Made by a program: the position numbers and the translations under genes | Assembly: GCA_021463795.1 (NCBI GenBank) | Contig: JAJTXE010000003.1 | Location: 553,364-617,363 of the forward strand | Source of the DNA: Candidatus Brocadia sp. | GTDB taxonomy: Bacteria > Planctomycetota > Brocadiia > Brocadiales > Brocadiaceae | Length of the DNA: 64,000 bases | Direction of reading: 5' to 3' | The notes under the pieces: model-generated | What the model was told of the DNA's origin: nothing | The model's database searches: none | Seen by the model: only the letters and a program-made list of their open reading frames with translations | Shown: positions 41,874 to 64,000 of the stretch, one piece after another | Position numbering within the stretch: the stretch's first letter is position 1 | Layout of the letters: the number at the start of each line of letters is the position of its first letter

Positions 41874-41890
41874 GCTTATAAGATATATTG

Positions 41891-44216: not shown

Positions 44217-44292
44217 GATTCTTCGGCCTTTTCACTTCCTCAGAATGGCAGAATAATGTGAAAATGTCATTCTGCGCGGAGCGAAGAATCTA
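44217..44292. repeat. GTCATT-core palindromic intergenic repeat (copy R2, ~76-nt imperfect hairpin)
   Basis: Outer arms AGATTCTTCG / CGAAGAATCT and inner arms CAGAATGGCA / TGTCATTCTG. Confidence 0.6.
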
Positions 44293-44303
44293 ATTTTGTG
44301 AAT

Positions 44304-44582: not shown

Positions 44583-44691
44583 GACAATTTTTTGTTTGAC
44601 AATTTATATTTTTCCTATATCTTTACTTTTTTGAGGTTTTGTTAAGATTTCTTTGTCCGCAGAATTAAATCGTTAAGGAGCTTTCTGTTCT

Positions 44692-45081: not shown

Positions 45082-45370
45082 GCAATCTGTGAACAATTAT
45101 CTTCCCTACATGAGCCAGCGGTAACAGACAATCAATTTTCTCATACCATAGGAGCGGAATTGAAAACCGTAAGGTTGTTTAAGAATTATTCCTTCATCCC
45201 CGTTTCCCCGTTTTTATTGCAAATTTCACCCATGCTCAACAAACAGCATATTTGTTTGGTAAAATTAACAAGATTATGGACCCGTTTATAGGCGTCCGTA
45301 ATTTTAAAGATAAAATTTTTATACGTTTGAGGCAATGCCTCGATAAAATACCAAAAGGAGATTTTTGAGA

Positions 45371-47296: not shown

Positions 47297-47303
47297 GTAA
47301 AAC

Positions 47304-48647
47304 ATGACGTCAATTCGTAAATATAAGGAATGGTTAATACCACTCCGTCGTCGTTTTTCTCCGATGTTGTTTCGTGAACTTTTGCGGTTTCTGCGGGTCT
47401 ATTCTTTTTTCTTCCGGGGAAATAAAAAGAAAGAATTGGTTTCCCTGCGCGTTCAGACCCGTGTCGGCGTAAAGCATCTGTACAAGGTGTATGCCAACCC
47501 GAAACGAACTGTTTGGACGACGATGTTCGTTCCGTCAGAAATGCTGTTTGCCATGGGATTGTATCCTTTTTGCCTGGAAATTGGCGCGGCGCTCTTTGCT
47601 GGTTTGGGACAAAGCTCGAAGGGGCTTATGGAGGCTGAGTCATATGGAGTTCCCACGGATATCTGCACCTTTCACCGATCCGCAATCGGGCACACCTTCA
47701 GAGATCTTTTTCCCAAAAACATCCTCCAGGTGGCCACGACAACGCTTTGTGATAACAACACCAAGACGATGAAGATATGCGAGTCTGTATCGGGAAAAGA
47801 GACCATCGTTATTGACGTGCCTTACGAGGCAGATGATTATTCGGTTCAATATCTTGCGAAACAACTGGAAGATTTTGCTCGCCGGCTAGAAGAGATCTCA
47901 GGCAGGAAGATGGAACAAGCGGCACTTGCAAAAGCAATTGATTACGCAAACCAAACACGGGAAAAGATGATCGAAATCAATGAGTTGAGAAAAGATCCGT
48001 TTTGTCCCCTCCCCGGTAGCAATGCATTAGGGTTTATGTTTCCGGCATATTTGTTAATTGGCTCGAAACTATCCGTGGAGTTTTTCTCTGCGCTGGCTGC
48101 TGAATTACGTGAGAAAACTGAAGAAGACAAGAAGAAAGGGGGACCTAGTCCCCGAAAAGATCTGATCAGGATTCTTTGGTTAGAATTAAAGCCTTATTTT
48201 AAGGTCGATTTCCTGACAAAATTAGAACAGGAGCAAGGGGTCAGGATTGTTTTTGAGGAAACCAATTACGTATACTGGGATAAGCTTGATCCGCAAAGAC
48301 CCTATGAAAGCCTTGCAAAGAAGCTCATTACCAGCCACTATAATGGTCCATTGGAGCGGCGTATTGAGATAACCAGGAAGCTTGCCAGAGAGTATCAGGT
48401 TGACGGCGTAGTGGTATTTTCATCCTGGGGCTGCAGGCGCAATAATGCTGCTGTGCCCACGCTGAAAAGGGAATTGAATAAGATCGGCTACCCCCTCCTC
48501 AGTCTTGACGGAGATTGTATCGATGATCACAATTATATGCCGGGACAATTCTCCACACGGATAGAAGGCTTTTTAGAGATGTTACGGGGAAGGAAAACAT
48601 CCGAGAGCCTTCCACAACCAGAAATATGTGAAGTGGGGGCAAGTTAA
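47304..48647 (+). CDS. 2-hydroxyacyl-CoA dehydratase / benzoyl-CoA reductase BcrB/C / double-cubane-cluster family subunit
   Basis: ...VWTTMFVPSEMLFAMGLYPFCLE..., ...GVPTDICTFHRSAIG..., ...TTTLCDNNTKT..., ...SSWGCRRNN... Starts 7 nt after the previous gene. Confidence 0.8.
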   Translation: MTSIRKYKEWLIPLRRRFSPMLFRELLRFLRVYSFFFRGNKKKELVSLRVQTRVGVKHLYKVYANPKRTVWTTMFVPSEMLFAMGLYPFCLEIGAALFAGLGQSSKGLMEAESYGVPTDICTFHRSAIGHTFRDLFPKNILQVATTTLCDNNTKTMKICESVSGKETIVIDVPYEADDYSVQYLAKQLEDFARRLEEISGRKMEQAALAKAIDYANQTREKMIEINELRKDPFCPLPGSNALGFMFPAYLLIGSKLSVEFFSALAAELREKTEEDKKKGGPSPRKDLIRILWLELKPYFKVDFLTKLEQEQGVRIVFEETNYVYWDKLDPQRPYESLAKKLITSHYNGPLERRIEITRKLAREYQVDGVVVFSSWGCRRNNAAVPTLKRELNKIGYPLLSLDGDCIDDHNYMPGQFSTRIEGFLEMLRGRKTSESLPQPEICEVGAS

Positions 48648-48651
48648 AAGG

Positions 48652-49272
48652 TTATTCGCTTTCATCTCTGCAACATGCAAGGCCTGCCACGACTTTTTCC
48701 AGGGGTGTCTTCCTGCGTATGATACCAGGGATAGCGAAATGGGGCAGTGTCCGTCACCATAATGCCAGAACGGCCGCCGTTCCCGATGCATTGTCATTAG
48801 CCCCCGGTGTATCTTCAAGCGAGTCGTAGTGCCCGCCGATTACCACAATTTCTCCCGGCCTTTCAGAACCGGTAATCTCACCTTCAAGATTATAACATCT
48901 CCGACCTCGCAAACTGCTCAAACTCACTTCATAGCCTTGACGGGAGACCTTAAGGCCTGCTTGTTGCAACGATGCTTCAATAAAATCTGCCGCAACAGCA
49001 AGATTTTTGTAGTTCGTTCTGACATTGCGGTCGCCGATCACTCCGGCTAATTGGTACACATCTTCCCGCAAAGTTTGCCTCAATAATTTTTGTTCCTCTG
49101 TCAGGGCGGGCATTGGCCTCTGATAGTTTTTACCTGGCATTCGAAACATAACGAACCACACCCCAATGCAAACAAGAGCAACGACAGGAATAACGTAAAC
49201 AAGAGAAACTTTATGCCGCCAGTCCTTCTTTATAGATGAGACAGGAAGGCTTTGTCCTGGCAAACGTTTCAC
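48652..49272 (-). pseudogene. M28-family aminopeptidase, internally deleted and frameshifted
   Basis: The N-terminal part reads ...IVVIGGHYDSLEDTPGANDNASGTAAVLALW* (first His/Asp zinc ligands). About 5 codons later, in another frame, comes TAPFRYPWYHTQEDTP (the C-terminal His ligand block). The last stretch (L)EKVVAGLACCRDESE* returns to the first frame. The ~130-150 residues that normally carry the Glu-Glu and Asp ligands are missing. Confidence 0.75.
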
Positions 49273-49334
49273 CCCGGTGACTATCTCAGGATGTTACTGA
49301 TTGTAAAACATTATTTGTAGGCGAAAATACCTCT

Positions 49335-50081
49335 TTATGAGTCCTGATCATATTTTACTTCGATGAGGCACAGGCCTTTTGCGGGCGCTGTGGGACCCGC
49401 GAGGTTCCTGTTCTTTGCACCTAAGATATCCTTCATGCTTTCCACCATAATTTTTCCCCTTCCCACCTCGATAAGAGTACCTACCATTGTTCTTACCATG
49501 TTATACAGAAAACCATTCGCCTCAACAGTAAAATAGAGATATTTCCCCTCTCTGGTAATCTCCAGCCTTTTTACCGTGCGTATCCGGTTTTTTCCCTGAA
49601 GTGCACTTGTGGTGAAGGAGGTAAAATCGTGAGTGCCTATGAGGTATTGTGCAGCGTACCGCATTTTCTCTGCATTCAGCAGAAGGCCGCAGAGATAACA
49701 AAAATTGCGATTGAGCGAGGTTCTTATCCAGTTATTAAGAAGCGTATATCGGTAGATCTTTGATTGAGCATCATATTGAGCATGAAAAGATACCGGTACA
49801 TCAGCCGCACCTTTTACGGTGATGTCGTGAGGGAGATAGAAATTGATGGCATGAATCAGCCGCTTGGATGGAACAGAGGATGTAGTTTTAAAATTTGCTA
49901 CCTGACCCAGGGCGTGCACCCCTGAATCAGTTCTGCTGGCGCCATAAATTTTAACCGGCTCCTGAACGACCTGTTCTACCGCCTTTGAAAGCATTTCCTG
50001 GACGGTTTTCTGGTCATTCTGCCATTGCCAGCCTGCGTATTGCGTACCGTCATATTCTATTAAAAGCCGTATGTTACGCAT
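49335..50081 (-). CDS. truA: tRNA pseudouridine(38-40) synthase
   Basis: MRNIRLLIEYDGTQYAGWQWQ..., ...GASRTDSGVHALGQV... Confidence 0.95.
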   Translation of the reverse strand: MRNIRLLIEYDGTQYAGWQWQNDQKTVQEMLSKAVEQVVQEPVKIYGASRTDSGVHALGQVANFKTTSSVPSKRLIHAINFYLPHDITVKGAADVPVSFHAQYDAQSKIYRYTLLNNWIRTSLNRNFCYLCGLLLNAEKMRYAAQYLIGTHDFTSFTTSALQGKNRIRTVKRLEITREGKYLYFTVEANGFLYNMVRTMVGTLIEVGRGKIMVESMKDILGAKNRNLAGPTAPAKGLCLIEVKYDQDS

Positions 50082-50139
50082 AGGCTAAATGAGTATTGTA
50101 AAGATGTACTCCCCGCAACTAAATCTCCCCCCCTTGGCC

Positions 50140-50196
50140 GGTAGAACAAGCGTTCCCGTTTGTCATTACGATATCAACCTGGCGGCTGACCTGCCT
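50140..50196 (+). repeat. GTCATT-core palindromic intergenic repeat (copy A, full length)
   Basis: GGTAGAACAAGCGTTCCCgtTTGTCATTACGATATCAACctGGCGGCTGACCTGCCT. Collinear with the copy at 57997-58055, with additional flank similarity on both sides. Confidence 0.65.
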
Positions 50197-50525
50197 CATG
50201 GTTTTGAGGGTTGCAAAATACTTGTAAAAAATTGAAACAAAAAAGATAGGTACAATCAACCAAAAAAAACACCTTTCACATATCTGTTTTTACTCAAAAT
50301 AGGTCTGAATCTTTTGTCGCAGTCCCCTGTGCTATCGTCAGGGGTCAGCAGGGTTTTGAGAATTCTGACAGAAAATCACCATGTTGAGACAGCATTATTC
50401 GGACAAAAACATTTTAACCGGCATTGCTTTTGTGGATTGACATTGTCATGGAAAACTGGAATACTATTCAATTCTTAATAAAAGCAGAGGTAGGTGTATC
50501 ATTTATCTGGAATGAGGAGAAGGCT

Positions 50526-51083
50526 ATGGTAATACCAGCGGGAACATATCATTTGACTGCGAATTCAGGAAAGTTGTCTGTTTATACGTTTAAAGAGGGA
50601 TTTCTCAGTGCAGTGGCTCATGACCTGTTAATCGAAGTGACCGGTTTTTCTGTTAAACTACATATTCCGGCCGGAGACATCCGTTTCGCAAGTGTGGAAG
50701 CCGAAATTCAGGCCAATTCATTGAAGGTAATCTGCGCCATGAAGGATGGTCTGCAACGGCATGATCTGCTGAAGGAAAAGGACAAGTCAGACATCGAAGA
50801 AGCCACTTTTAAGGATGTGCTACATTCGGACAAACACCCAGTTATCAACTTTCGTTCCACAAATATCCAGGAAAGGGACGGTGCGTACCACGTCGAAGGT
50901 GAGCTGGCCTTACATGGGGTTACGCGTCCTGCAGCATTTTCCGTGAAAACTACTGGAAAAGATCTTAAAGGAAAATTCATCCTGTCACAGAAAGATTATG
51001 GAATAAAACCTTACAAGGCGTTATTGGGAACGCTCAAGGTGAAAAACGAGATAGAGATGACGTTTGATTTCTCGTTAAGTTAA
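50526..51083 (+). CDS. YceI-like (polyisoprenoid-binding) domain protein, no signal peptide
   Basis: GAGGAG Shine-Dalgarno sequence 6 nt before the ATG at 50526. ...SGKLSVYTFKEGFLSAVAHDLLIEV... and ...VEGELALHGVTRPAAF... The track ORF opens at a TTG at 50424. Confidence 0.8.
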   Translation: MVIPAGTYHLTANSGKLSVYTFKEGFLSAVAHDLLIEVTGFSVKLHIPAGDIRFASVEAEIQANSLKVICAMKDGLQRHDLLKEKDKSDIEEATFKDVLHSDKHPVINFRSTNIQERDGAYHVEGELALHGVTRPAAFSVKTTGKDLKGKFILSQKDYGIKPYKALLGTLKVKNEIEMTFDFSLS

Positions 51084-51284
51084 ACATGATTGTAAACCAG
51101 TCCAGGTCATTTTAGTTTGGTGGATCTTTAAGATACCTGCTTTAAAAAATACCTTTATTTTTGGAACAAAAATTTATACAATTACGGTTTTTAGTTCAAC
51201 ACCAGAAACTTAAATAAGGTGAATTGCGGTTTAAACGGTGGCCGGTTTTTGATGATTGTTTCAGCGGAAGCGGAAAAGGGGTAA

Positions 51285-51776
51285 ATGGTGGAAAACAATA
51301 GAAGAAAATTCCTGAAAGTTGTGTCACATAGCCTGGGAGGTGTTTTGGCAGCAGGCATCGCAGCGCCACTGGTTGGTTTAGGGATACACCCGTGGCTGAA
51401 AGAAACAGTGTATGGAACTGAGGACTTTATTAACCTTGGCAAATTGGAAGATTTTCCCGTTGGTATTCCTAAAAAAATGAACGTTACCTCTTCCAAGATG
51501 GATGCATGGAATGTCTTTGAAGGATTGGTTATGGGGTCGGTTTGGGTGCTGCGGAAAGAAGATGATTCTTTAAAGGTATTTTCGGTAAATTGCCCGCATC
51601 TTGGCTGTGGCATCAACTGGGGAGAAGATGAAAAGCAATTTCTGTGTCCCTGCCACGAAGGGGTTTTTGACATAAATGGTAAGGTACTATCGGGGCCCGC
51701 ACCTCGCAGCCTTTACAGTTACGAAACGAAGATTGAAAATGATAATGTTCTGGTAAATTATAAAAAATTGATATAA
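51285..51776 (+). CDS. Rieske [2Fe-2S] protein with a twin-arginine signal
   Basis: NRRKFLKVV (Tat motif), CPHLGC...CPCHEGVF (Rieske boxes). 163 aa. Confidence 0.9.
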   Translation: MVENNRRKFLKVVSHSLGGVLAAGIAAPLVGLGIHPWLKETVYGTEDFINLGKLEDFPVGIPKKMNVTSSKMDAWNVFEGLVMGSVWVLRKEDDSLKVFSVNCPHLGCGINWGEDEKQFLCPCHEGVFDINGKVLSGPAPRSLYSYETKIENDNVLVNYKKLI

Positions 51777-51805
51777 AGATATTGTTAAAAGGTGATAGGT
51801 AATCT

Positions 51806-53593
51806 ATGGCAAACAAGCTTGGTGAATGGATAGAAGACAGAACTGGACTTAGCAAACTGTTAAAAGCGGCGTTGGATGAGCCAGTGCATGGCGGGGCCAA
51901 ATGGTCATATATTTTTGGGAGCGGACTGGTATTTCTCTTCGTTCTGCAGGCGGTGACCGGCATTTTTATGGCGAGTTACTATTCTCCTTCTTCGACGGCA
52001 GCGTGGGGAAGTGTTTATTACCTTCAGTACAAAACCTCTTTCGGATGGTTTGTACGCGGCGTGCACCATTATGGTTCGAGCGCAATGATGATCGTGGCCA
52101 TGGTGCATATGTTTCAGGTCTTTATTTTCGGCGCATATAAAAAACCCCGGGAGCTGAATTGGATTTCCGGAGTTATCCTGCTTTTATTCCTGGCTGGCTT
52201 TGGTCTTACCGGGTATCTGTTGCCTTGGGATCAGAAGGGATACTGGGCCACACAGGTTGCCACCAATATTATGGGAACGGTCCCGGTGATTGGAAAGTAC
52301 ATTAAGATTCTGCACCAGGGAGGGGCCGACTATGGGAATTTTACCATAACCCGTTTCTACACCCTGCATGTATTTTTATTACCCATTTCGCTCGTCTTTT
52401 TCCTCTTTATTCACATAGCCCTTTTTCGTAAGCACGGGGTAACCCCATATTGGAAAATGAGAGAAGATGTGTTAAGAGACCGTATTGACCCCTTTTGGCC
52501 TGACCAGATATTTAAAGACATTGTATTCGCTCTGGGCATGTATGCAGTCATTGCCGGCGTTGTTTTTTGGACACGGGGCGCCGAGCTGCAATCGCCAGCA
52601 GACCCTGCCTCTAATTACCTTGCACGGCCTGAATGGTATTTCTTATTCTTGTTTGAACTCTTAAAATATTGCCAGGGAAAATATCTCATTGTCGGAACTG
52701 TGATCATTCCCGCCCTTGCTCTGACTTTTTTATTTGTACTGCCATTTATCGACAGAAATACCTCAAGGTATCCTTCAAAGAGGATGCCATATTTTGGAGC
52801 GATATTTTCTGGATTGACCGGGGCCGTTGTTTTGACCGTGCTCGCCATGCATCATGACAGCAAGGATATCCATATCATCCATCAGCGTGAGGAGGCAGAG
52901 AAACAGGCCGCTAGAGCGGTGAAGTTAGCAGAAAAAGGTATTCCTCCCACGGGAGCCCTGTCGATCTTCCTTCACGATCCCCTTGCCCTTGGTGGAAAAA
53001 TCTTTAAAGAAAGCTGTATTGGTTGTCATAAAATAGGAGTGGAGGGCGGTGATAATGGCCCTGACTTTACCAACTTTGGTTCAAGAGAATGGATTGCCGG
53101 GCTGTTGAAAAACCCGAAAGACGTAAAGTATTTCAAAGAATCAGGGGCGATGCCTCCCATAAAACTCCCGGATGAATCACTCCTGGACATGACGGAATTC
53201 CTTTTAAGCCAGTCAGAGGGCTTGATCCATCAAAATGCCGAACGAGTGGAGAGGGGAAAAGAACTGGTATTAAAAGGGAATTGCGTTGTCTGCCATCCCA
53301 TTGGCAACAAAGACCTGAAAAAGATCGCACCAAACCTGACGGAATATCTGTCGGAGACATGGTTAAAAGAATTCATCAGGAACCCGGGCGATCCTAGATT
53401 CTACGGTACCAGGAATAAAATGCCTGCCTTTGACAGGCTTACCGATAGCCAGTTAGATGCACTGATTCAGTACTTATTCAGTTTATCAAAGGATCGGGCG
53501 CTGGTTTCCGAAAAACAGGAAAAGGGAAAAAGGGGGTATGTGTTCGGTCTCACCTCCCCGCGGACAATGATTACTTTTCAAGACAAGTCCTGA
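51806..53593 (+). CDS. cytochrome b (b6 plus subunit IV-like) fused to a C-terminal dihaem cytochrome c
   Basis: ...FVRGVHHYGSSAMMIVAMVHMFQVF... and ...GYLLPWDQKGYWAT... belong to the cyt b core. Two CxxCH motifs are present: CIGCH (nt 53015-53029) and CVVCH (nt 53282-53296). 595 aa. Confidence 0.9.
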   Translation: MANKLGEWIEDRTGLSKLLKAALDEPVHGGAKWSYIFGSGLVFLFVLQAVTGIFMASYYSPSSTAAWGSVYYLQYKTSFGWFVRGVHHYGSSAMMIVAMVHMFQVFIFGAYKKPRELNWISGVILLLFLAGFGLTGYLLPWDQKGYWATQVATNIMGTVPVIGKYIKILHQGGADYGNFTITRFYTLHVFLLPISLVFFLFIHIALFRKHGVTPYWKMREDVLRDRIDPFWPDQIFKDIVFALGMYAVIAGVVFWTRGAELQSPADPASNYLARPEWYFLFLFELLKYCQGKYLIVGTVIIPALALTFLFVLPFIDRNTSRYPSKRMPYFGAIFSGLTGAVVLTVLAMHHDSKDIHIIHQREEAEKQAARAVKLAEKGIPPTGALSIFLHDPLALGGKIFKESCIGCHKIGVEGGDNGPDFTNFGSREWIAGLLKNPKDVKYFKESGAMPPIKLPDESLLDMTEFLLSQSEGLIHQNAERVERGKELVLKGNCVVCHPIGNKDLKKIAPNLTEYLSETWLKEFIRNPGDPRFYGTRNKMPAFDRLTDSQLDALIQYLFSLSKDRALVSEKQEKGKRGYVFGLTSPRTMITFQDKS

Positions 53594-53682
53594 GCAAAAT
53601 CCGGAAGCTGATGCACGGAAGTTCAACAGAATTATAACATCTATATCGTGGTGCAGCAAAGCCGTAAACAAATCCCTCTATT

Positions 53683-53712
53683 GGTAGGACAAGCGTCCCG
53701 GTTGACCTACCT
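53683..53712 (+). repeat. GTCATT-family repeat, collapsed copy B (arms only, central core missing)
   Basis: GGTAGGACAAGCGTCCC|GGTTGACCTACCT is the left and right arms of copies A and C joined directly (11 of 13 bp stem). Left-flank similarity to copy C is also present (caaagc..aaac.aat.cctct.tt). Confidence 0.6.
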
Positions 53713-54120
53713 AACAGCCGTATTCTGATTGCCGTAAGCGAAATGGTGAAGGAGGGCGGTTTAGGAAACGATATCAGTGAATTGCCGGTGGCTGGCGCGT
53801 GCACGGAGTGGATGAGTGAAAAGGCAATTGCTATCGGGCAATTTCTGGTAGCCTCTGGTATTTATACCGTCTTTGGTATGAATTCGCCGGTGGCTGGTGC
53901 TCCCGATATGCAAAGGTTGCTAACAAAAGAGATGGAAGAGATGTGTGGCGCACGATGGGATTTTGAGGCTGATTTAAAGAAGATCGGAAAGATGCTCATG
54001 GATCACATCGAAAAGAAGAGAGATGCACTTGGTATTAACGTGAATAAGGAGAGAAAACTGTACGATATGGCTGAGAGAAGGGCGCTCGAAAGGGAGTGCA
54101 AGCCGGCAGCACATCATTAA
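53713..54120 (+). pseudogene. acsA: Ni,Fe-CO dehydrogenase catalytic subunit (AcsA/CooS), C-terminal ~135 codons only
   Basis: NSRILIAVSEMVKEGGLGNDISELPVAGACTEWMSEKAIAIGQFLVASGIYTVFG... matches the extreme C-terminus of CooS/AcsA (..VDNSRI.., LPVA...EWMSEKA). An in-frame stop lies at 53665-53667. No N-terminal ~500 codons exist upstream, because the cyt b stop is at 53593. Confidence 0.8.
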
Positions 54121-54142
54121 AGTGATTTAAAGGGGTGTTTTT

Positions 54143-56326
54143 ATGTCCAAGATTATCTGTACTGCCGCCATTCGCGGCGCATATAAAATTGTAGATAAGG
54201 CTGATAAAAAACTTGCCGATGCAATAGCGCAAAAGGGACGCGATTGCAAGGTGGAGTTTCCGAACACGGCGTATTACTTGCCCATCATTTATTCCATGAC
54301 GGGTGTTGCCGTGAAAACACTGGAGGATTGCGAGTATATCCTGGGAATGGCGCGGAGCATGCTCCCGCCATTGCCGGCAGAAAAGCACTGGGTACCTTAC
54401 CTTGGGCATACCCTTGATGCCGGGATGGCAACGCTTTTTGCCGAGGAAGTGTATGAGGCCTGTAAATATCTCATCGGGCCTCACCCGGTAGACGGAATAT
54501 GGCTTGGCGCTGCTGATGACGTTATCATGCGCGAACGCGGCATTGAGTTTGTCGATGGCACGGCGCCAGGGTTTGCCGCAATTGTGGGGTGTGCGCCTGA
54601 TGCAGATACGGCCGTGAAGATTGCCAGGGAACTTCAGCAAAAGAATCTGTACGTGTTTATGCAGTCAGATAATTTTGGGACATCGTTTGCCGAGCAATTG
54701 GCTGAAAAGGGCGTCCAGATGGGGTGGGATACCCGACTGGTGCCTTTTGGAAAAGAGACCTCGGCTGCTGTATATTCTCTGGGTTTTGCCAACAGGGCAG
54801 CCCTTTCATTTGGAAATGTGCCCCCCGGTGAGGCAAGGAGAAATCTCCTCTATAACAAAAACCGCATCTTTGCATTTGTTATGGCAATAGGAACCGCCGT
54901 AACAGATGAACAGTATGCCAACGCAGCGGGTGCTATCAATTATGGTTTTCCGACGATTTCAAATATCGACATTCCGGAGATATTGCCCACCGGCGTATGT
55001 ACCTATGAACACGTGGTTTCAAGGGTGCCGGTGGACAAGATTGTTGATAAATGCATTGAAGTCCGTGGGCTAAAGATTTCTATCCACAAGATGGATATCC
55101 CCGTGGCGTACGGTCCGGCTTTCGAAGGTGAGCGTATCAGAAAAGAGGATATGCAGATTGAGATTGGCGGCCCCGGCGTCCCTGCATTTGAATATGTGTG
55201 CACCAAAGAAATTGACGCGGTTGAGGATGGCAAAATACAGGTTATCGGGCCAGACCTGGACGAAATTAAGCCGGGACCAGGTGTGTCGCTTGGTATCATG
55301 GTTGAGGTGGCAGGCCGAAAGATGCAGCCTGATTTTGAGCCAATCTTCGAACGTCAGATGCACCGGTTTCTGGGTGAAGCCCAGGGCCTGTTCCACATGG
55401 GGCAAAGGGACATCATCCGTCATCGCATCAGTAAAGAGGCATTTAAGGCAGGGTTCAGGATCAAGCATATCGGCAGTATCATCCATTCGCAGTTCCATAG
55501 TAATTTTGGGGCGATTGTTGACAAAGTGCAGGTTACCTTTTATACCAAAAGGGAAGATGTGGAGCGGATATTAAAAGACGTGCGCGCCGCTTATGCAGAG
55601 CGTGATGCGCGATTAGAGGGTATGACCGATGACTCGGTGAACATGTTTTACAGTTGCACCCTCTGTCAAAGTTTTGCGCCTACCCATATTTGCGTTGTGA
55701 CACCGGAACGTTCCGGTCTTTGTGGCTCCGTCAGCTGGCTGGACGGCAAGGCAGGCTACGAGATCAACCCCACAGGGCCAAATCAGCCGATCGAGCGTGG
55801 CAAGGTGGTGAATGAAAATCTGGGGCAGTGGGAAGGCACGAACTCATTTATCTATAATGGGTCAAACCGGTCGCTGGAGAAGGTAAGTTTGTATAGTATT
55901 ATGACAGACCCGATGACCAGTTGCGGCTGTTTTGAGTGCATCTCGGCGATGTTGCCCATGACGAATGGGATTATGGTGGTAGACCGTGACTTCACGGAAA
56001 TGACCCCCTGTGGTATGAAATTTTCCACGCTTGCCGGGACGGTTGGCGGTGGTTTGCAGACCCCCGGGTTTATGGGGCACAGCAAGTTTTATTTAGGCAG
56101 TAGGAAATTCATTTCAGCCGATGGTGGTTTGGGCCGTGTTGTGTGGATGCCCAAGGCACTGAAGGAGGAGTTGGCGGAAACGCTTGCCGATACGGCACAG
56201 GAGCTTGGTCTTGAAGATTTTCTCAATAAAATAGCTGATGAAACGGTTGCTCAGACTGAGGACGAAGTTGTGGCTTATATGCAGAAAGTTAGCCATCCGG
56301 CTTTGGTTATGCCGGGAAAAGATTAA
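54143..56326 (+). CDS. acsB: acetyl-CoA synthase (CODH/ACS A-cluster subunit)
   Basis: MSKIICTAAIRGAYKIV..., A-cluster cysteines CTLCQSFAPTHICVVTPERSGLCG and SCGCFEC. 727 aa, apparently full length. Confidence 0.95.
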   Translation: MSKIICTAAIRGAYKIVDKADKKLADAIAQKGRDCKVEFPNTAYYLPIIYSMTGVAVKTLEDCEYILGMARSMLPPLPAEKHWVPYLGHTLDAGMATLFAEEVYEACKYLIGPHPVDGIWLGAADDVIMRERGIEFVDGTAPGFAAIVGCAPDADTAVKIARELQQKNLYVFMQSDNFGTSFAEQLAEKGVQMGWDTRLVPFGKETSAAVYSLGFANRAALSFGNVPPGEARRNLLYNKNRIFAFVMAIGTAVTDEQYANAAGAINYGFPTISNIDIPEILPTGVCTYEHVVSRVPVDKIVDKCIEVRGLKISIHKMDIPVAYGPAFEGERIRKEDMQIEIGGPGVPAFEYVCTKEIDAVEDGKIQVIGPDLDEIKPGPGVSLGIMVEVAGRKMQPDFEPIFERQMHRFLGEAQGLFHMGQRDIIRHRISKEAFKAGFRIKHIGSIIHSQFHSNFGAIVDKVQVTFYTKREDVERILKDVRAAYAERDARLEGMTDDSVNMFYSCTLCQSFAPTHICVVTPERSGLCGSVSWLDGKAGYEINPTGPNQPIERGKVVNENLGQWEGTNSFIYNGSNRSLEKVSLYSIMTDPMTSCGCFECISAMLPMTNGIMVVDRDFTEMTPCGMKFSTLAGTVGGGLQTPGFMGHSKFYLGSRKFISADGGLGRVVWMPKALKEELAETLADTAQELGLEDFLNKIADETVAQTEDEVVAYMQKVSHPALVMPGKD

Positions 56327-56471
56327 CCGTTTGATTTCTGTTGAGACGGGACAACCCCTGGGAAAGGTAGAGACGGATACCAAGAGAAATTTCTGGATGT
56401 CCGCTGAAGAAGCTTTCAAATACGGATTGGTCAGTAAAATTATACAGACGAGTGATGATTTAAAGACATAG
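56316..56471 (+). pseudogene. clpP: ClpP protease, C-terminal ~45-50 codon remnant
   Basis: EKINRLISVETGQPLGKVETDTKRNFWMSAEEAFKYGLVSKIIQTSDDLKT* matches the ClpP C-terminal pattern (…TGQ..e.i..Dt.RD.fMsAeEA.eYGL.D.I…). It overlaps the acsB stop in another frame. No catalytic part lies upstream. Confidence 0.7.
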
Positions 56472-56612
56472 TTTTATGGTAATTGCTCAATATCAACGGC
56501 ACGCATGTTCTTTTTATATCCACTCCGTTATCCACTTTTCATGAATGCGGGTGAGTGGGTGGTTATTCGTTTGATGATGTGCAAATTTCTTTATGTGAAA
56601 GGATAGTAGAGC

Positions 56613-57953
56613 ATGGCACTAACGGGATTAGACATTTATAAACTCCTTCCCAAAACAAATTGCAAGAAGTGCGGAAGGCCTACCTGTCTTGCATTTGCGA
56701 TGCAATTGGCGCAAAAAAAGGCAAACCTGTCGGATTGTCCGGATGTAAGCGAAGAGGCAAAAAAAGTGCTGGGTGCGGCAGCAGCCCCTCCCATTAAACT
56801 CGTGACGGTTGGTGCGGGCGCCAGACAAGTTCAGGTGGGTGAGGAAAATGTCCTGTTCAGACACGAAGAGAAGTTTTATCATCCCACGGGCGTCGCCGTC
56901 ACTATCCCGGACGACCTGAGTGAAGATGCTTTCAACGACCGGTTAAAAAAGGTTAACAGTTTGAAACTTACCCGTGTTGGTACGGAAATCGAGATTGACC
57001 TGATTGCCGTGATGAACAAGAGCAATAATGCAGAAAAATTTGCCGAAGCGGCAAAGAAAGTAAGTGCCGGGTCTCATTTGAATATGATTTTAAGCAGTGC
57101 GTCTGTGGATAATATGAAGGCTGCTTTGCAACATTGTGCTGAAAAGAGACCGCTGCTTCATGGCGCCAGTGCCAGCAACTGTGAGGCAATGGCAGCTCTT
57201 GCACAGGAAAAGAAGTGCCCGATGACCGTAACAGCCCAGACCCTTGAGGAGCTTGCTGAACTGGCAGAACGTGCCAAAAAGGCTGGCGTTGAAGAGATTG
57301 TTCTGGATGTGGGAGGGAACAATCCCAAAGAGGTGCTGCAAAAACTGACCAAGGTTCGTCGCCTTGCCTTAAAGAAAAATTTCCGCACGCTCGGATTCCC
57401 GATGATTACCTTTGTGTGTGATGAAGACCCGTTCCAGGAAATCGCACTGGCAAGCACCTATTTGCTGAAGTATGCCGGCATTGTTGCGGTGAATGCGTGT
57501 GAGCCATGGGCAATTATGCCCCTGCTTACTGCCAGGACAAATATATTTACGGATCCGCAAAAGCCCATACAGGTGGAGCCGCGATTGTACGCCGTTGGTG
57601 ACGTTAAGGATGATTCCCCGATATTGTTTACCACAAACTTCTCACTTACCTATTATACGGTTGAGGGAGAGGTTGAGTCGAGCCGTGTGCCTGCCTATAT
57701 TTTAGCGGTGGATACGGGTGGGACCTCCGTGCTAACTGCGTACTCAGGAGACAAATTAAACGACAAGGTGGTTGCGAAGGCCATGACAGACGCACAGGTT
57801 GATACCAAGGTAAAGCATAAGAAAATGATCATCCCGGGTCTTGTTGCCGTGATGTCCGGGAAATTGCAGGAGACCCTTGGATGGGAAATTCTGGTGGGTC
57901 CACGAGAGGCTTCGGGACTCCCTTCCTATCTGAAAACGGTGTGGAAAGCGTAA
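56613..57953 (+). CDS. acsC: corrinoid iron-sulfur protein, large subunit
   Basis: MALTGLDIYKLLPKTNCKKCGRPTCLAFAMQLAQKKANLSDCP ([4Fe-4S] motif). 446 aa. Confidence 0.95.
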   Translation: MALTGLDIYKLLPKTNCKKCGRPTCLAFAMQLAQKKANLSDCPDVSEEAKKVLGAAAAPPIKLVTVGAGARQVQVGEENVLFRHEEKFYHPTGVAVTIPDDLSEDAFNDRLKKVNSLKLTRVGTEIEIDLIAVMNKSNNAEKFAEAAKKVSAGSHLNMILSSASVDNMKAALQHCAEKRPLLHGASASNCEAMAALAQEKKCPMTVTAQTLEELAELAERAKKAGVEEIVLDVGGNNPKEVLQKLTKVRRLALKKNFRTLGFPMITFVCDEDPFQEIALASTYLLKYAGIVAVNACEPWAIMPLLTARTNIFTDPQKPIQVEPRLYAVGDVKDDSPILFTTNFSLTYYTVEGEVESSRVPAYILAVDTGGTSVLTAYSGDKLNDKVVAKAMTDAQVDTKVKHKKMIIPGLVAVMSGKLQETLGWEILVGPREASGLPSYLKTVWKA

Positions 57954-57996
57954 CATAACAAAGCTGCAACCAATACCTCTCTATTACCTCTCTCTT

Positions 57997-58055
57997 GGTA
58001 GGACAAGCGTCCCCACTTGTCATTATGATGTCAACCGGGGACGGTTGACCTGCCT
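57997..58055 (+). repeat. GTCATT-core palindromic intergenic repeat (copy C, full length)
   Basis: GGTAGGACAAGCGTCCCCacTTGTCATTATGATGTCAACcGGGGACGGTTGACCTGCCT. The outer arms are an imperfect inverted repeat. The core has GTCA..GTCA spaced 11 nt apart. Confidence 0.65.
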
Positions 58056-58175
58056 TAGGGATTTGCGGACGTGGTAAAAAACTTGCAAAAGCATGTCCTC
58101 ATGAAAATGGGGAAAGAATTTCTTACACAATAATACGATAAAACTGTTTAAGGATTTTCACTTCAGGTCTAATGT

Positions 58176-60203
58176 ATGGAAAACTCACGATTTAAAGTAC
58201 AGTTCTTTCCTGTTGACGTTACCGTAGAGATTGAAAAGGGAAAAACTATCCTCGATGCTGCATATAAGGGAGACCTGTTTATAAACGCCCTGTGCGGGGG
58301 CGACGGCACGTGCGGCAAGTGTAAAGTCATTCTGGGTTCCGGTATGATTGAAAGCATGCCCACGACTCATATCTCGGTATCAGAGGCGCAAAAAGGGTAT
58401 GTCCTCGCATGCAGTACAAAGGTAATGGGCAACCTGGAAGTAATCATTCCTGAAGAATCGAAGCTTGATAAAAGTCAAATCCTTGTCAGTGAATTTCCTC
58501 AATTCTCAGGTTCCCTGGCAGCAGCTACCGCTAACGTGGAACATTTTCAGCAAGACCCTTTGGTGAATAAAGTATATCTTGAACTGCCGCAACCTACCCT
58601 GGATGACAGTATGGCTGATTATGAGCGGCTGTGCAGGGAGATCATGGTGAAAACCCACGTTCCACTGGAAAAGCTGACTACAAATTTCGATGTCCTCAAA
58701 CGCCTTCCGGGTATTCTGAGGAGCAGTAACTGGAAGGTGACGATGACGCTGGGATACAGGGGTCCGTCGGTAGAAATTATGGAAATACAGGGGGGCAATG
58801 CCAGCGAAGGAAATTATGGTGTTGCCGTGGACGTTGGAACAACCACGGTGGTTGCGCACCTTATGAATCTTTCCCGCGGAGAGACGGTCGATGTTGAAGC
58901 AACCTACAATTCTCAGATTAAATATGGGGACGATTATATTCAGAGGATTATGTATGCCGCTGAAAATAACGCCATGGAGCTCATGCAGGAGGTGCTGGTT
59001 GAGGATATTAACCATCTCATTTCTACCCTTGTTAAGAGAAACCATCTTAGTATCCACGATATTCATGCGGTGGTTTGTGCGGGAAATACGGTAATGACCC
59101 ATTTTCTCATCGGTTTGGACCCTACGAATATCAGAAAAGAGCCGTATCTTCCGTCCGCAAGCTTTGTGCCTCCGTTGAGGGCACATGAGGTAGGGGTGAA
59201 AATTAATAGCAACGGCCTGCTCTATACCCTCCCGTGCGTTGGCGCTTATGTGGGAGGGGATATTTCTTCTGGTGCTTTGGCAATCAGGCTGGACAAGGCG
59301 GAGATGTTGTCGCTGCTCGTTGATATCGGCACGAATGGCGAGATTGTGCTGGGCAATAAAGACTGGATGGTGTGCTGTTCCGCATCGGCAGGCCCTTCTT
59401 TTGAAGGCAGCGGTATCTCCTGTGGTACCCGTGCGGCTAAGGGTGCTATTGAAAAGGTGTCGATTACAAAAAATTACCATGTTACGTATAAAACCATCGG
59501 AGACGCCCCGGCAAGCGGTATTTGTGGCTCCGGGCTTTTAGACTGCCTGGCGAATCTTGTCAGAAGTGGTGTCATCGACAGAACTGGCAATTTCCAGAAA
59601 GGAATAAGCTCAGATCGTTTGAGGAAAACAGACAACGGCTATGAATTTATCCTGGTTGACAGGAGCGAAACCTCTACAAAACGGGATATCGTTATTACCC
59701 AGGCGGACATTCAGAATCTCATGCGGTCAAAAGCGGCGATCTATTCGGCAATCTCTACCCTGCTCGAATCCATGGGAATGGAAGCAAGTAATATTGAGCA
59801 GCTCTATCTTGCGGGCGGGTTTGGCAATTATCTCGACATACGGAGCGCGATCACGATTGGGATGCTCCCTGACATGTCTGCTTCAAAAGTACAGTTTGTA
59901 GGGAATACCTCGGTGCTTGGCGCAAAGATGGTCCTCCTCGCAAAAGATGCCTATGAAGTGATGCTCCCTGACATGTCTGCTTCAAAAGTACAGTTTGTAG
60001 GGAATACCTCGGTGCTTGGCGCAAAGATGGTCCTCCTCGCAAAAGATGCCTATGAAGTTGCCAGAGTCATTGCGTCCAAGATGACATATTTTGATCTCAT
60101 GAGTAATAATAAATACATGGAGGAATATGTATCGGCAAACTTTTTGCCGCACACCGATATTGAAAAATTTCCATCCGTTGCAGAGGAACTGATGGTAAGT
60201 TAG
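58176..60203 (+). CDS. reductive activase of the corrinoid Fe-S protein (RACo: [2Fe-2S] ferredoxin plus ASKHA ATPase, DUF4445-type), carrying an internal 33-aa duplication
   Basis: N-terminal CGGDGTCGKCKV...LAC ferredoxin, ASKHA motifs VAVDVGTTTVVAH and LLVDIGTNGEIVLG. 675 aa including the duplicated MLPDMSASKVQFVGNTSVLGAKMVLLAKDAYEV. Confidence 0.9.
   Translation: MENSRFKVQFFPVDVTVEIEKGKTILDAAYKGDLFINALCGGDGTCGKCKVILGSGMIESMPTTHISVSEAQKGYVLACSTKVMGNLEVIIPEESKLDKSQILVSEFPQFSGSLAAATANVEHFQQDPLVNKVYLELPQPTLDDSMADYERLCREIMVKTHVPLEKLTTNFDVLKRLPGILRSSNWKVTMTLGYRGPSVEIMEIQGGNASEGNYGVAVDVGTTTVVAHLMNLSRGETVDVEATYNSQIKYGDDYIQRIMYAAENNAMELMQEVLVEDINHLISTLVKRNHLSIHDIHAVVCAGNTVMTHFLIGLDPTNIRKEPYLPSASFVPPLRAHEVGVKINSNGLLYTLPCVGAYVGGDISSGALAIRLDKAEMLSLLVDIGTNGEIVLGNKDWMVCCSASAGPSFEGSGISCGTRAAKGAIEKVSITKNYHVTYKTIGDAPASGICGSGLLDCLANLVRSGVIDRTGNFQKGISSDRLRKTDNGYEFILVDRSETSTKRDIVITQADIQNLMRSKAAIYSAISTLLESMGMEASNIEQLYLAGGFGNYLDIRSAITIGMLPDMSASKVQFVGNTSVLGAKMVLLAKDAYEVMLPDMSASKVQFVGNTSVLGAKMVLLAKDAYEVARVIASKMTYFDLMSNNKYMEEYVSANFLPHTDIEKFPSVAEELMVS
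59861..60058 (+). repeat. perfect 2 x 99-bp in-frame tandem duplication inside the RACo gene
   Basis: Unit 1 (59861-59959) and unit 2 (59960-60058) are identical base for base (gatgctccctgacatgtctg...gatgcctatgaagt). The flanking bases differ, so each unit is exactly 99 bp (33 codons). Confidence 0.97.
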
Positions 60204-60246
60204 GCCTTCGGCTACGTATAAATACAAATTTTCCCGACTGGAGTCC

Positions 60247-60304
60247 ATCCCCTTTCACCCCTGCCAGCGGGGGACATTTGTTTGTCGCCTTCCGTGAGAG
60301 GGAT
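60247..60304. repeat. imperfect palindrome of the CCCCTTTCAC...GTGAGAGGG type
   Basis: ATCCCCTTTCAC (60247-60258) pairs with GTGAGAGGGAT (60294-60304), with mismatches. Intergenic, between the RACo gene and cooC. Confidence 0.35.
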
Positions 60305-60359
60305 TAAGGGGGAGAAAATTTTTGTTTGAAATTTCTAAACCTTCAAAAAAGAGGTTTCT

Positions 60360-61151
60360 ATGGCTTTTAATATTGCAGTGGCAGGAAAGGGAGGAACGGG
60401 GAAGTCGACCCTTTCTGCCCTTATTATCCGATATATTACCGAAGAGCTTGGTAAGCCGGTATCGGCGGTAGATGCCGATCCGAATGCGTCTCTCGGTTCA
60501 TTGCTTGGTCTGCACGTGCAAAGCACCGTTGCTGACATCCGTGAAGATATCGTGGAGAAAAAAGTAGATTTTTCCGGGATGTCTAAGGACAGATATATTG
60601 AGTATGCCATCGAGGAGTCTATCATTGAAAAGGAGAAATTTGATCTTTTAACGATGGGGAGGCCGGAAGGGCCGAAATGTTATTGCTATGTCAATAATCT
60701 CCTGCGTAAATATCTTGATAAAGTAGGCACAACGTACCCGTTTATTGTTACCGACAATGAGGCAGGGATGGAGCATCTCTCACGCAGGACAACGAACAAT
60801 GTCGATCTCCTGTTGATTGTAAGTGAACCAACGATTGTAGGTGCATTGACCTTACAAAGGATCATCGCATTAGCTGAATCTCTTTCGGTTACGATCCGGC
60901 AAAAGTATTGTATCCTAAACCGGGTGCCCCAGAAGGGTATTCATGAAAATCTTCAGCAGAAGTTGGACAGCCTGGGAATTGAAGTATCTGCGATTTTCCC
61001 CTTTGATCAGGAGGTTTACGATACTGCGGCGTGTGGTGCTTCTGTGTTTGAAATTTCCCGTGAAAATGAGCTATATCAAAAACTGGGGAATTTCCTGCAG
61101 AAACATTTGCCGGCAAGTATGCTCGAAAAGAGCATCTCTGGGCGTACCTAA
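60360..61151 (+). CDS. cooC: CooC/AcsF-type Ni-insertion accessory ATPase
   Basis: AVAGKGGTGKST (P-loop) and GPKCYCYVNN (the CxC metal site). 263 aa. Confidence 0.9.
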   Translation: MAFNIAVAGKGGTGKSTLSALIIRYITEELGKPVSAVDADPNASLGSLLGLHVQSTVADIREDIVEKKVDFSGMSKDRYIEYAIEESIIEKEKFDLLTMGRPEGPKCYCYVNNLLRKYLDKVGTTYPFIVTDNEAGMEHLSRRTTNNVDLLLIVSEPTIVGALTLQRIIALAESLSVTIRQKYCILNRVPQKGIHENLQQKLDSLGIEVSAIFPFDQEVYDTAACGASVFEISRENELYQKLGNFLQKHLPASMLEKSISGRT

Positions 61152-61185
61152 AAGAGCGCGCCTTTAAAGGTTATACGCAGACACT

Positions 61186-61243
61186 TGTCATTGCGAGGAA
61201 CGCATGTAACGAAGCAATATTAATTCAAGGTTTAGGAATTTTA
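61186..61243. repeat. GTCATT-core repeat (copy R6) followed by a 25-nt motif shared with 44186-44210
   Basis: cacTTGTCATTGCgaggaacgcatgtaacgaaGCAATattaattcAAGGTTTAGGAATTTtaa. The stretch attaatt-N-aaggtttaggaattt-N-aa recurs at 44186-44210 with 2 mismatches. Confidence 0.45.
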
Positions 61244-61420
61244 ACCTTTTTGACTCAGGTAGAGCGACCAGCCTTGTCGTTCCACAATGAGGGAAGCTTA
61301 AAGTCGCTGCCTAAGGCAGCCAAAATAAAGAAAAACTCGTTCATTGACGTGTCCGCCAGCACGATGATGAGGTTTCTTGAGATTTTTAGATATTGAACGG
61401 ATTGGGTAGGAGAGAAATGA

Positions 61421-62380
61421 ATGGAAATACCAAATGTAGCTGACAAGTGGTCGGGTACGGTTAATGAAATTACCCTTGGCGCCACAAAGGACAATGGAGG
61501 TACGAGGACAAAGACCATTACGATTGGTGGTGCAAAAAGTATCCCTTTTATGGACTTTGAGGGGAATCCGGGACAAAAGCCTGTGGTTGCCATGGATGTC
61601 TATGACGTGCCGCCGGAAGACTGGCCGGAAACCCTGGCAAAACCTTTTGCGGACGTCCTTAACGATCCGGCACAATGGGCAAAAAAGTGCGTGGAACAGT
61701 ATGGTGCAGATTTAATCTGCCTCAAATTGGAGGGAATTCATCCCGATAAAGGCAACAAAACTGCAGAAGAGACCGTAAAGACGGTAAAATCGATCCTTGC
61801 TGCAGTAGGTGTCCCCCTGATTATCTGGGGATGTGAACATGACGAAAAAGACAATGAGGTCATGCCCAAGATAAGCCAGGCTGCAAGGGGAGAATGTTGT
61901 CTGATGGGGGTTGTTACCCAGGATAATTACAAGACACTTACCGCTACATGTCTGGCGGACGGACATGCGCTTATTACGCTGGCTCCGGTGGATATCAATA
62001 TTGCAAAACAGGTAAATATTCTTGTGTCTGAAATGGATTTTCCGCTCAACCGGATCGTGATGTTTCAGTCAACCGGTGCCCTGGGTTACGGTCTTGAGTA
62101 CACCTATTCTATTCAGGAACGCGAACGGCTGGCGGCGCTTACGGGTGATAAGATGATGTCGATGCCCGTAATCTGTGATGTTGGGCATGAGGCGTGGAGA
62201 ACCAAGGAGTCAAAATCGGGCGATAATGAAGTTCCCCAGTGGGGAGCGCGGGATGAGAGAGGCCCCATGTGGGAGGCTATTACGGCGGTTGGTTTGCTGC
62301 AGTCGGGTGTGGATATTATCCGTATGAGCCATCCGAAGGCCGTTGCTACGGTAAAAAAGTGTATTGACCGTTTATATTAA
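61421..62380 (+). CDS. acsD: corrinoid iron-sulfur protein, small subunit
   Basis: MEIPNVADKWSGTVNEITLGATKDNGGTRTKTITIGG... 319 aa, TIM-barrel-type CdhD/AcsD pattern. Confidence 0.95.
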   Translation: MEIPNVADKWSGTVNEITLGATKDNGGTRTKTITIGGAKSIPFMDFEGNPGQKPVVAMDVYDVPPEDWPETLAKPFADVLNDPAQWAKKCVEQYGADLICLKLEGIHPDKGNKTAEETVKTVKSILAAVGVPLIIWGCEHDEKDNEVMPKISQAARGECCLMGVVTQDNYKTLTATCLADGHALITLAPVDINIAKQVNILVSEMDFPLNRIVMFQSTGALGYGLEYTYSIQERERLAALTGDKMMSMPVICDVGHEAWRTKESKSGDNEVPQWGARDERGPMWEAITAVGLLQSGVDIIRMSHPKAVATVKKCIDRLY

Positions 62381-62485
62381 AAAACGTAATATTCACCTCA
62401 AAGACACGAATGACACAAAGGAAGAACGAAAGTAATAAAAAGTTCAAGGAATTGATAATTTTTAGAAAGAAAGGATAAACATACA

Positions 62486-63097
62486 ATGATTTCCATCGGT
62501 GAGCGCATTAATGGTATGTTTAAAGATGTACGAGAGGCGATAAAGAATAAAGATCCGAAGGCAGTAAGGGAACTTGCCATAAGACAGACAGAAGCAGGGG
62601 CAAGCTTTCTCGACGTAAATGTCGGCACTGCCGCAGCTGACCCTGTTGAGGCAATGAAATGGCTGATTGAGGTGGTTCAGGATACGGTAAAGACGCCGAT
62701 CGCCATTGATAGCCAGAAATTTGATGTAGTAAAGGCGGGTTTATCAGTTGCAAAGAACGAGATCTTGATCAATTCTTCAAAAGGAGATCCAGAAGAATTG
62801 GATAAATTCATGACCATAGCCAAGGAATATAATGCATCACTGATATGCCTGACCATGGATAAAACCGGTATTCCGCAGGACGTCGAGCGTCGCATGGAAT
62901 TTGCCATGAAGATCGTTGAAAAGGCCGTGGAGCATGAATACGAACTGTCAAAGGTCTATATCGATCCCATACTTTTCCCTATTAATGTTGATCAGAAGCA
63001 GCCAGCGCTCATGTTCGACATCTTCAATCAGATTAGAGGCACAAGCTGCAGGGGTGCCTACGATCGGTTATGGGGCATTTATCAATACGATCATTGA
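62486..63097 (+). pseudogene. acsE: methyl-THF:corrinoid/Fe-S protein methyltransferase, 3'-truncated after about codon 184
   Basis: MISIGERINGMFKDVREAIKNKDP...[27 protein letters not shown] is collinear with AcsE/MeTr. Expected next is ...P..KTV.GLSNVS... plus ~75 more residues. Instead the frame reads [19 protein letters not shown]. Confidence 0.8.
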
Positions 63098-63269
63098 TTT
63101 TATCATAGTTGCGTTCGCCATCTTTATGTTAGTTCGGGTCATCAACAAGGTAACACAACCAAAACCTGTGGCTGCACCTGCAAAAACAAAAGAATGCGCA
63201 TTCTGCATCTCCGCTGTTCCGATCAAAGCAACCCGATGTCCATTTTGCACCTCTGAGTTAAAGGCCTAA
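63036..63269 (+). pseudogene. mscL: large-conductance mechanosensitive channel, C-terminal ~75 codons only
   Basis: [39 protein letters not shown]... aligns with MscL TM2 (E. coli ...[28 protein letters not shown]). The tail is a Zn-ribbon-like [22 protein letters not shown]. There is no TM1 or start codon, because the upstream DNA is acsE in another frame. Confidence 0.75.
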
Positions 63270-63323
63270 TATCAAATCATGAAAGCAATGATAGAGGCCT
63301 TCCATTTTTTGCACATGTTTGTT

Positions 63324-63375
63324 ACACCTCTTGATTTTATCGTAAGTGTTTTGTCGCGACGAAATCAAGAGGTGT
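63324..63375. terminator. hairpin between convergent genes (bidirectional terminator candidate)
   Basis: Perfect 14-bp arms ACACCTCTTGATTT / AAATCAAGAGGTGT with a 24-nt loop, followed by TTTGCCTTTC on the plus strand. Confidence 0.55.
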
Positions 63376-63411
63376 TTTGCCTTTCTGCTCTATGGAGACA
63401 AGTTAAGCATC

Positions 63412-63957
63412 TTAATAGATATTTTTCCTCTCAGATTTATTTTCCAGACAAGCAAGATAGTGGAGCGCTATCTCATTTTTCGGAGCAATTTCCAGCACTT
63501 TTTTATACCAGGAGATAGCAGTTCTATCCTCATGAATTTGGCGATAGGCATGACCCAGGTTCAAACGGACCCGCACTTTCGCAAGATCGTTTTCTCCTGC
63601 CAAAAGATCCGCCTTTCGATAGTTTTCAATCACAAATTCATAGAGATCAGTCCGATAGTATTTTGCCAGTGGCCATATGGTATCGGCTGATTCTTTATAA
63701 TAACGCTCTGATTTCTGGTTCCACTGTTTTCCCCAATTCAGAAGTTCAACGGCCTGATCTGCTTTTCCCTCACCATCAGGCATCCGGTTTGGGTTTTTTG
63801 TCCAGGATACCCATTTCGACCACAGCAGCCAGGCCATCGTAGTATAGGTATCGATATCTTTACGATCAATGGTAACAATTCGATAACCAATGCGAATCGC
63901 CTTGTTATAGCTTCCCGCGGGATTATCAAAATGCTGGTTGTCTATGTAAAAGCCCAT
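63412..63957 (-). CDS. TPR-like repeat protein, function unknown
   Basis: 181 aa. AAGGAG lies just upstream of the ATG at 63957. The C-terminal ...LNLGHAYRQIHEDRTAISWYKKVLEIAPKNEIALHYLA... is a TPR unit. Confidence 0.55.
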   Translation of the reverse strand: MGFYIDNQHFDNPAGSYNKAIRIGYRIVTIDRKDIDTYTTMAWLLWSKWVSWTKNPNRMPDGEGKADQAVELLNWGKQWNQKSERYYKESADTIWPLAKYYRTDLYEFVIENYRKADLLAGENDLAKVRVRLNLGHAYRQIHEDRTAISWYKKVLEIAPKNEIALHYLACLENKSERKNIY

Positions 63958-64000
63958 ACACTCCTTTAACAGACCTGTATCATATTGACAAGGTAAATCT

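Follow-up and report, generated by a model that had tools for sequence, protein, structure and literature searches.

An acsE/mscL junction in a Candidatus Brocadia record: almost certainly an assembly artefact and very probably a seam between end-to-end k=99 contigs

In a 64,000-nucleotide stretch of a Candidatus Brocadia contig (hereafter the window), the 5' part of acsE is followed directly by the 3' part of mscL. This junction is almost certainly an assembly artefact and not a biological feature. The sequence comparisons described below make it very probable that the switch at 63035/63036 arose in the deposited assembly, as a seam where contigs of a k=99 assembly were set end to end, and that it does not reflect genome structure. 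Concatenation of k=99 de Bruijn contigs is the reading adopted here because the breaks are blunt, a duplication of 99 bp and an MscL overlap of 99 nt were found, and the aberrant proteins all lie on one contig.

An earlier note on this DNA had described an abrupt acsE/mscL junction with no spacer and with both gene copies cut. The sequence confirms that description to within a few bases. In an alignment with intact 261-aa alleles, acsE homology stops at nt 63035, after 183 codons and 1 nt, while mscL homology begins at nt 63036, in a frame offset by +1 from that of acsE, and comprises codons 71-147 and the stop codon. At most one base, the A at 63035, is common to both homologies. The features at the junction, which is referred to below as J4, are as follows.

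62486-63035, + strand: 5' part of acsE, codons 1-183 and 1 nt, read as the end of an assembly fragment (Pfam, alignment, 99% nucleotide identity to Logan contig L004)
63036-63097, + strand: read-through tail of the cut acsE ORF, about 20 junk codons and then a stop (ORF list, alignment, frame offset of +1)
63036-63269, + strand: 3' part of mscL, residues 71-147 and stop, read as the start of the next assembly fragment (Pfam, Logan contig L087)
63036-63134, + strand: 99-nt stretch encoding MscL residues 71-103, which also end the protein P0361; candidate k-mer overlap (protein comparison)
63412-64000, - strand: TPR-repeat gene, in Brocadia convergent with mscL as its native neighbour, running past the window's end (homologues; L087, L088 and L089)

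The sequences across the junction (marked by a slash) read as follows.

Intact acsE: ...CAATCAGATTA / AGATGATTTCC
Window: ...CAATCAGATTA / GAGGCACAAGC
Intact mscL: ...AGCCGTGCA / GAAGCACAAGC

Judged by sequence similarity, the matches on both sides of the junction are not due to chance. GC content falls from 0.44-0.50 before the junction to 0.40-0.43 after it, a slight drop that does not discriminate between the readings considered here.

The product of acsE, which we take to be the methyl-H4folate:corrinoid/Fe-S protein methyltransferase (AcsE, or MeTr), is encoded in the window by an ORF of 203 aa (62486-63097), and its homologues measure 259-274 aa, mostly 261. The Pfam profile Pterin_bind (PF00809) is matched by the window ORF only over positions 14-186 of 244 and by the intact allele over positions 15-239. 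The window protein follows the 261-aa Brocadiaceae AcsE residue for residue through ...FNQI and then diverges. This agrees with the earlier observation that AcsE is collinear with its homologues to about codon 184 and then lacks the GLSN block and the C-terminus; residues 184-261 are missing, including the GLSNFS block. All full-length homologues aligned contain this block (P0004 and P0015, discussed below, are themselves cut short), and its Asn, in the form GLSN(F/V)S, is presumably important for catalysis, as reported for the Moorella MeTr. The gene lies after cdhD/acsD in the acs (CODH/ACS) cluster, as acsE should, and its ORF falls short of a complete pterin-binding (beta/alpha)8 barrel, which has about 260 residues.

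A natural family of short AcsE proteins was considered and rejected, as no intact AcsE of this length was found in relatives. The two short homologues proved to be a nonsense and a frameshift variant: P0004 (181 aa) results from a CAG-to-TAG change in a different species, in DNA that is collinear with full-length acsE, and P0015 (184 aa) from a frameshift in another assembly. GTDB species representatives were scanned as well: of the 80 AcsE loci retained, 79 extend over residues 1-256 of 261 or more, and the remaining, partial one is situated at a contig end. Positions 240-785 of L110, from a public assembly of a Wunengus-like species, hold an acsE with a premature TAG at codon 182, and in P0015, from another public assembly, the acsE frame shifts after ...DPVLF. 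Both probably stem from sequencing or strain variation and have no connection with the junction.

Intact acsE alleles are present in strains nearly identical to that of the window. The sequencing runs SRR33746415, SRR36073043 and SRR30202069 contain such near-identical strains. The CdhD protein exactly as it occurs in the window is encoded by three independent Logan assemblies (L004, L005 and L006). The acsE genes of L004 and L005 are intact, with 261 aa, and L006 ends inside acsE; L004 also carries a RACo of 642 aa. At the nucleotide level, L004 is 100% identical to the window over 58025-59959 and 99% identical over 59960-63035, and its AcsE matches the B. pituitae protein at 100% identity. 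The suggestion that the methyl hand-off enzyme of the Wood-Ljungdahl pathway would be non-functional in the organism is therefore unwarranted, given an intact acsE at 99% nucleotide identity in near-identical strains.

The acs region also varies on a finer scale. Identity between the window and L004 is 100% over 58025-61704, after which 23 SNPs and a 9-bp intergenic indel (62409-62417) occur within 1.3 kb (61705-62965). Identity to B. pituitae and B. carolinensis also changes segment by segment, which suggests a strain mosaic or recombination within the acs operon.

On the other side of the junction, Pfam MscL (PF01741) matches the window fragment over profile positions 61-111 of 123 (E = 8.5e-12). 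The fragment comprises the periplasmic loop, TM2 and the CxxC..CxxC tail; residues 1-70, TM1 and the start codon are missing, so that the window copy does not provide two TM helices in one polypeptide with its own start. MscL had been described as running from the loop and TM2 to its end, in another frame and without TM1 or a start, and this holds, the retained residues being 71-147. Logan contig L087 matches window positions 63035-64000 at 98.8% nucleotide identity without gaps and carries the full 147-aa mscL (1004-1447, - strand), convergent with the TPR gene. Its MscL is identical to B. pituitae BBO18930.1 and was seen on 172 contigs. The convergent TPR/mscL pair is present in L087, L088 and L089. 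Longer alleles that restore both genes, for which the earlier note had proposed to look, thus exist in independent assemblies of near-identical strains (acsE at 99% and mscL at 98.8% nucleotide identity).

A first best match of 79% for MscL had suggested foreign DNA 3' of the junction. This was rejected: the TPR gene and L087 show Brocadia DNA of the same species. Among the homologues of the TPR gene, all named records are Brocadia and the others are of no stated taxon, the best match being 99% identical. With regard to the protein itself, the CxxC-x11-CxxC tail of the Brocadia-type MscL (window 63195-63269) gave no significant Pfam match, and comparable tails are seen in MscL homologues that bear the names of Chloroflexi, Nitrospirota and other groups. 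The Brocadia tail may be a zinc-ribbon C-terminus that replaces the part matching the last 12 profile positions.

The gene order in relatives bears on whether the two genes could have been joined by loss of the DNA between them. In L004, L005 and B. pituitae, acsE is followed by an AP-endonuclease-family gene, alanine racemase and peptidase M32, and in B. sapporoensis-like genomes by a squalene-hopene cyclase. The native neighbours of mscL are the TPR gene and cstA. In the closest complete genome, that of B. pituitae, about 3000 protein ids separate AcsE (BBO15926.1) from MscL (BBO18930.1); in a 3.49-Mb Brocadia genome, AcsE (QOJ07488) is 136 ids from the TPR neighbour of mscL (QOJ07352); and in Brocadia sp. 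WS118 the acsE locus and the mscL/TPR locus are on different scaffolds. No acsE locus with a flank reaching that far has mscL within 10 kb on its 3' side, and no compared acsE locus except L003 matches the window beyond 63060. Neither adjacency nor same-strand closeness of acsE and mscL was found in related genomes.

A deletion joining same-strand neighbours had been one of two explanations first offered for the junction. Such a simple deletion between adjacent genes would account for two fragments on the same strand with no spacer between them, but other genes follow acsE natively in every relative examined, and mscL is flanked by the TPR gene and cstA. Since acsE and mscL are never neighbours in the relatives examined, such a deletion is excluded, and we give it next to no credence. 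Whether mscL normally follows acsE in related genomes had been posed as a check; it does not. A single inversion that breaks within mscL and within acsE was also considered, and it fits the orientation at J4, but its reciprocal products are absent from the window and three further breaks (J1-J3, described below) would be left unexplained. In WS118, the mscL-TPR pair is located about 4 kb from UDG-DHH-gltD-like genes, which in the window occupy 15.4-20 kb; the window lacks the intervening genes expected from an inversion (cstA, a VTT-domain gene, peptidase M32 and alr).

The last part of the window is occupied by the gene cluster for acetyl-CoA synthase (Wood-Ljungdahl pathway) of an anammox planctomycete. 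Its genes are as follows.

54143-56326: acsB
56613-57953: acsC
58176-60203: RACo
60360-61151: cooC-like ATPase
61421-62380: cdhD
from 62486: acsE

This order is the same in L001, L004 and L007. Within 9.3 kb upstream of J4, three more breaks were located by comparison with B. pituitae, B. carolinensis, WS118 and B. sapporoensis (L007-L010) and with Logan contigs.

53712-53713, + strand: J1, blunt join between the 3' flank of a bc1-type cytochrome b gene and the middle of a CODH catalytic-subunit gene (comparison with L090)
56310-56314, + strand: J2, blunt join of acsB, minus its last 4 codons, to a clpP-like gene of which the last ~53 codons are left (BLAST against L007-L010)
59861-60058, + strand: J3, perfect 99-bp tandem duplication in RACo (TRF, 2.0 copies, 100% identity; a second repeat search agrees)

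At J1, the CODH remnant (53713-54120) matches Prismane profile positions 427-513 of 513 and represents the last ~135 codons of its gene. The native left-side continuation in L090, from the same sample as L004, differs from the window, and in B. pituitae the cytochrome b and CODH genes are about 50 protein ids apart. At J2, 848 bp of B. pituitae (L007) are missing, the gap being 667-876 bp in the other three relatives, and the clpP-like remnant matches Pfam CLP_protease positions 136-181 of 182. The duplication at J3 is in frame and adds 33 aa, giving a RACo of 675 aa here against 641-642 aa in relatives; it is absent from L004, L007 and L008. Microhomology amounts to 1-2 nt at J1, J2 and J4, and to 0-2 nt across all breaks. 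The fragments between the breaks measure 2600, 3647 and 3076 bp. No frameshifts, stop codons or other decay were seen in the gene remnants at the breaks.

A patchwork of small contigs over the whole window was also considered. It is refuted by the collinearity of 14.7-53.7 kb (save for a 1.2-kb link, 25414-26604): independent contigs run collinear with window segments 14665-25414, 26604-42514 and 41328-53712, with identities of 98.6-99.8%, and align to the first two of these segments without gaps. Judging from these alignments, the defects found within the compared span (14665 onward, save 25414-26604) are confined to the last 10 kb of the window.

Two observations concern other parts of the window. 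A palindromic intergenic repeat (GTAGGGGCGAAGCATTTGC ... GCAAATGCTTTGCCCCTAC) lies at 6540-6668, and the same palindrome is found in L004 (9597 to its end), L005 (6362-6397), L007 (15208-15337) and L011 (three places). The element is found repeatedly in Brocadia genomes and looks like a dispersed REP-like repeat; copies of it stand at the ends of two independent Logan contigs. Further, a tRNA-Arg(CCG) gene (14665-14739) is the end point of all six independent Logan contigs shown, and the gene content to its left differs from that of Brocadia sp. WS118. The region may vary between strains, serve as a hotspot of integration or contain another seam.

The breaks could be taken as real. A genuine rearrangement by illegitimate recombination, translocation or inversion, in a strain or sub-population, would have inactivated both acsE and mscL alongside further deletions in the acs operon. 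The junction is indeed unambiguous in the record, it is flanked on both sides by genuine DNA of the same Brocadia species, and the genus does undergo rearrangements, as differences in gene order from one Brocadia species to another show. We nevertheless regard such an origin as very unlikely. Anammox autotrophs need the acs operon for CO2 fixation. Four independent structural mutations in this one operon would be required (truncation of CODH, clpP and acsE, and the 33-aa duplication in RACo), point-mutational decay is absent, the aberrant alleles occur in one record only while near-identical strains in several samples are intact, and the reciprocal halves are absent from the window. The recurrence of 99 in two separate measurements also points to a k-mer artefact. 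It is a shade less likely still, in our estimation, that all four breaks are real in a Brocadia sub-population whose CODH/ACS operon was broken by illegitimate recombination, leaving a lineage without Wood-Ljungdahl carbon fixation of its own; were this true, the sub-population would survive, for example, by cross-feeding within the anammox granule.

The evidence for k=99 contigs placed end to end comes from the distribution of the aberrant proteins and from the number 99 itself. Among ~15 billion proteins, the AcsB ending in ...PGKD, RACo-675, AcsE-203 and CODH-125 are each confined to a single NCBI contig, 1,160,425 bp in length. Another NCBI contig, of 2,284,717 bp, encodes P0361, a 113-aa protein that consists of MscL residues 1-103 followed by the junk sequence ITMNTSYTMS. 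We infer that P0361 comes from the same assembly as the window. As deduced from the protein sequence, P0361 and the MscL fragment of the window overlap over residues 71-103, which is 33 codons or 99 nt, the length of the duplication at J3. With two independent breakpoints in a 444-nt gene, the chance of an overlap within 1 nt of 99 is about 1%. Neighbouring contigs of a de Bruijn graph have exactly k bases in common.

The marks by which such a seam can be recognized are found here: a perfect tandem duplication of fixed length (J3, 99 bp); the other half of a split gene located elsewhere and sharing k bases (P0361, provided that it stems from the same assembly); and aberrant alleles in one record with intact alleles in independent assemblies (L004, L005 and L087). 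Exact-pattern scans of JGI metagenome contigs gave no match for the junction, and none for the intact mscL allele either. The contig missing at J2 would measure about 1046 bp (848 + 2 x 99), and all retained fragments exceed 2.5 kb; a length of about 1046 bp falls under common binning cut-offs.

These results suggest the following course of events. The source record would be a pseudo-molecule of Ca. Brocadia, from a genome close to B. pituitae and B. carolinensis, in which de Bruijn-graph contigs with an overlap of 99 were set one after another, with no N spacers and with their overlaps unmerged. Where true neighbours were placed together, the common 99-mer would appear twice, producing the tandem duplication in RACo (J3). 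Where the true neighbour was absent, perhaps too short for binning or placed elsewhere, the ends of unrelated or non-adjacent contigs would abut bluntly. One contig would thus end inside acsE at 63035 and the next would start inside mscL at 63036. The contig that precedes the 3' part of mscL, with the same 99-mer at its end, would have been put into another pseudo-molecule and given rise to the 113-aa P0361. The pipeline itself presumably involved k=99, a binning cut-off and reference-guided ordering. A chimeric assembly join had been the other explanation first proposed for the junction; the present results support it and give it the more specific form of a blunt concatenation of k=99 contigs.

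An artefact of a different kind could also be proposed. The 1.16-Mb contig could come from a long-read assembly instead, in which case the mechanism of error would differ. A chimeric long read (from ligation or MDA), or a mis-assembly during long-read assembly or polishing, would have spliced the 9.3-kb block 53712-63035 between unrelated loci, the 848-bp loss and the 99-bp duplication being local polishing or consensus errors. Contigs of 1.16 Mb, the length of the source contig, are typically produced by long-read assembly, J1 and J4 are blunt with ~1 nt of microhomology, as in ligation chimeras, and the breaks are restricted to one 10-kb stretch. Such a mechanism would, however, require four separate errors within 10 kb, and it leaves unexplained both the perfect duplication of exactly 99 bp and the exact 99-nt overlap with the complementary MscL fragment. 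It is considered unlikely, and concatenation of k=99 contigs is retained as the explanation of the junction.

Taken at face value, the record would describe an anammox bacterium without the methyl-branch hand-off enzyme and the CODH of its only CO2-fixation pathway, which is a striking metabolic claim. The inference of pathway loss is unwarranted because the junction is read as an assembly join and not as genome structure, and this reading prevents a false call of a pseudogene or of a lost pathway. The record is best flagged as a pseudo-molecule, whose truncations, 33-aa 'insertions' and odd gene neighbourhoods are not suited to biological interpretation. Perfect 99-bp tandem duplications and blunt truncations of intact genes could be used to find any remaining seams.

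With respect to known systems, the intact AcsE of a near-identical strain aligns with solved MeTr structures (PDB 2YCI, 2E7F and 1F6Y) over residues 1-259 (E = 8e-74), and with 2YCI over residues 2-259. The AcsE of the window is identical in kind up to residue 183 and lacks the last quarter of the TIM barrel; as recorded, it is an incomplete member of this family. Similarly, the MscL fragment matches the part of its family that comprises the loop and TM2. With the full Brocadia protein, the match extends over profile positions 1-111 of 123, and the Brocadia-type CxxC-x11-CxxC tail stands in place of a match to the last 12 positions. The defects themselves resemble those of draft or metagenome-assembled genomes (MAGs) with unmerged k-mer overlaps or spacer-less concatenation, the length of the duplication being that of a common assembler k (99). 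As in such concatenated drafts and MAGs, blunt joins cut intact genes, the complementary half of a cut gene has the same 99-nt end, and the aberrant alleles occur in one record. The window differs from them in that three consecutive fragments stand in the correct operon order, which points to an ordering step, reference-guided or graph-based, and not to random placement.
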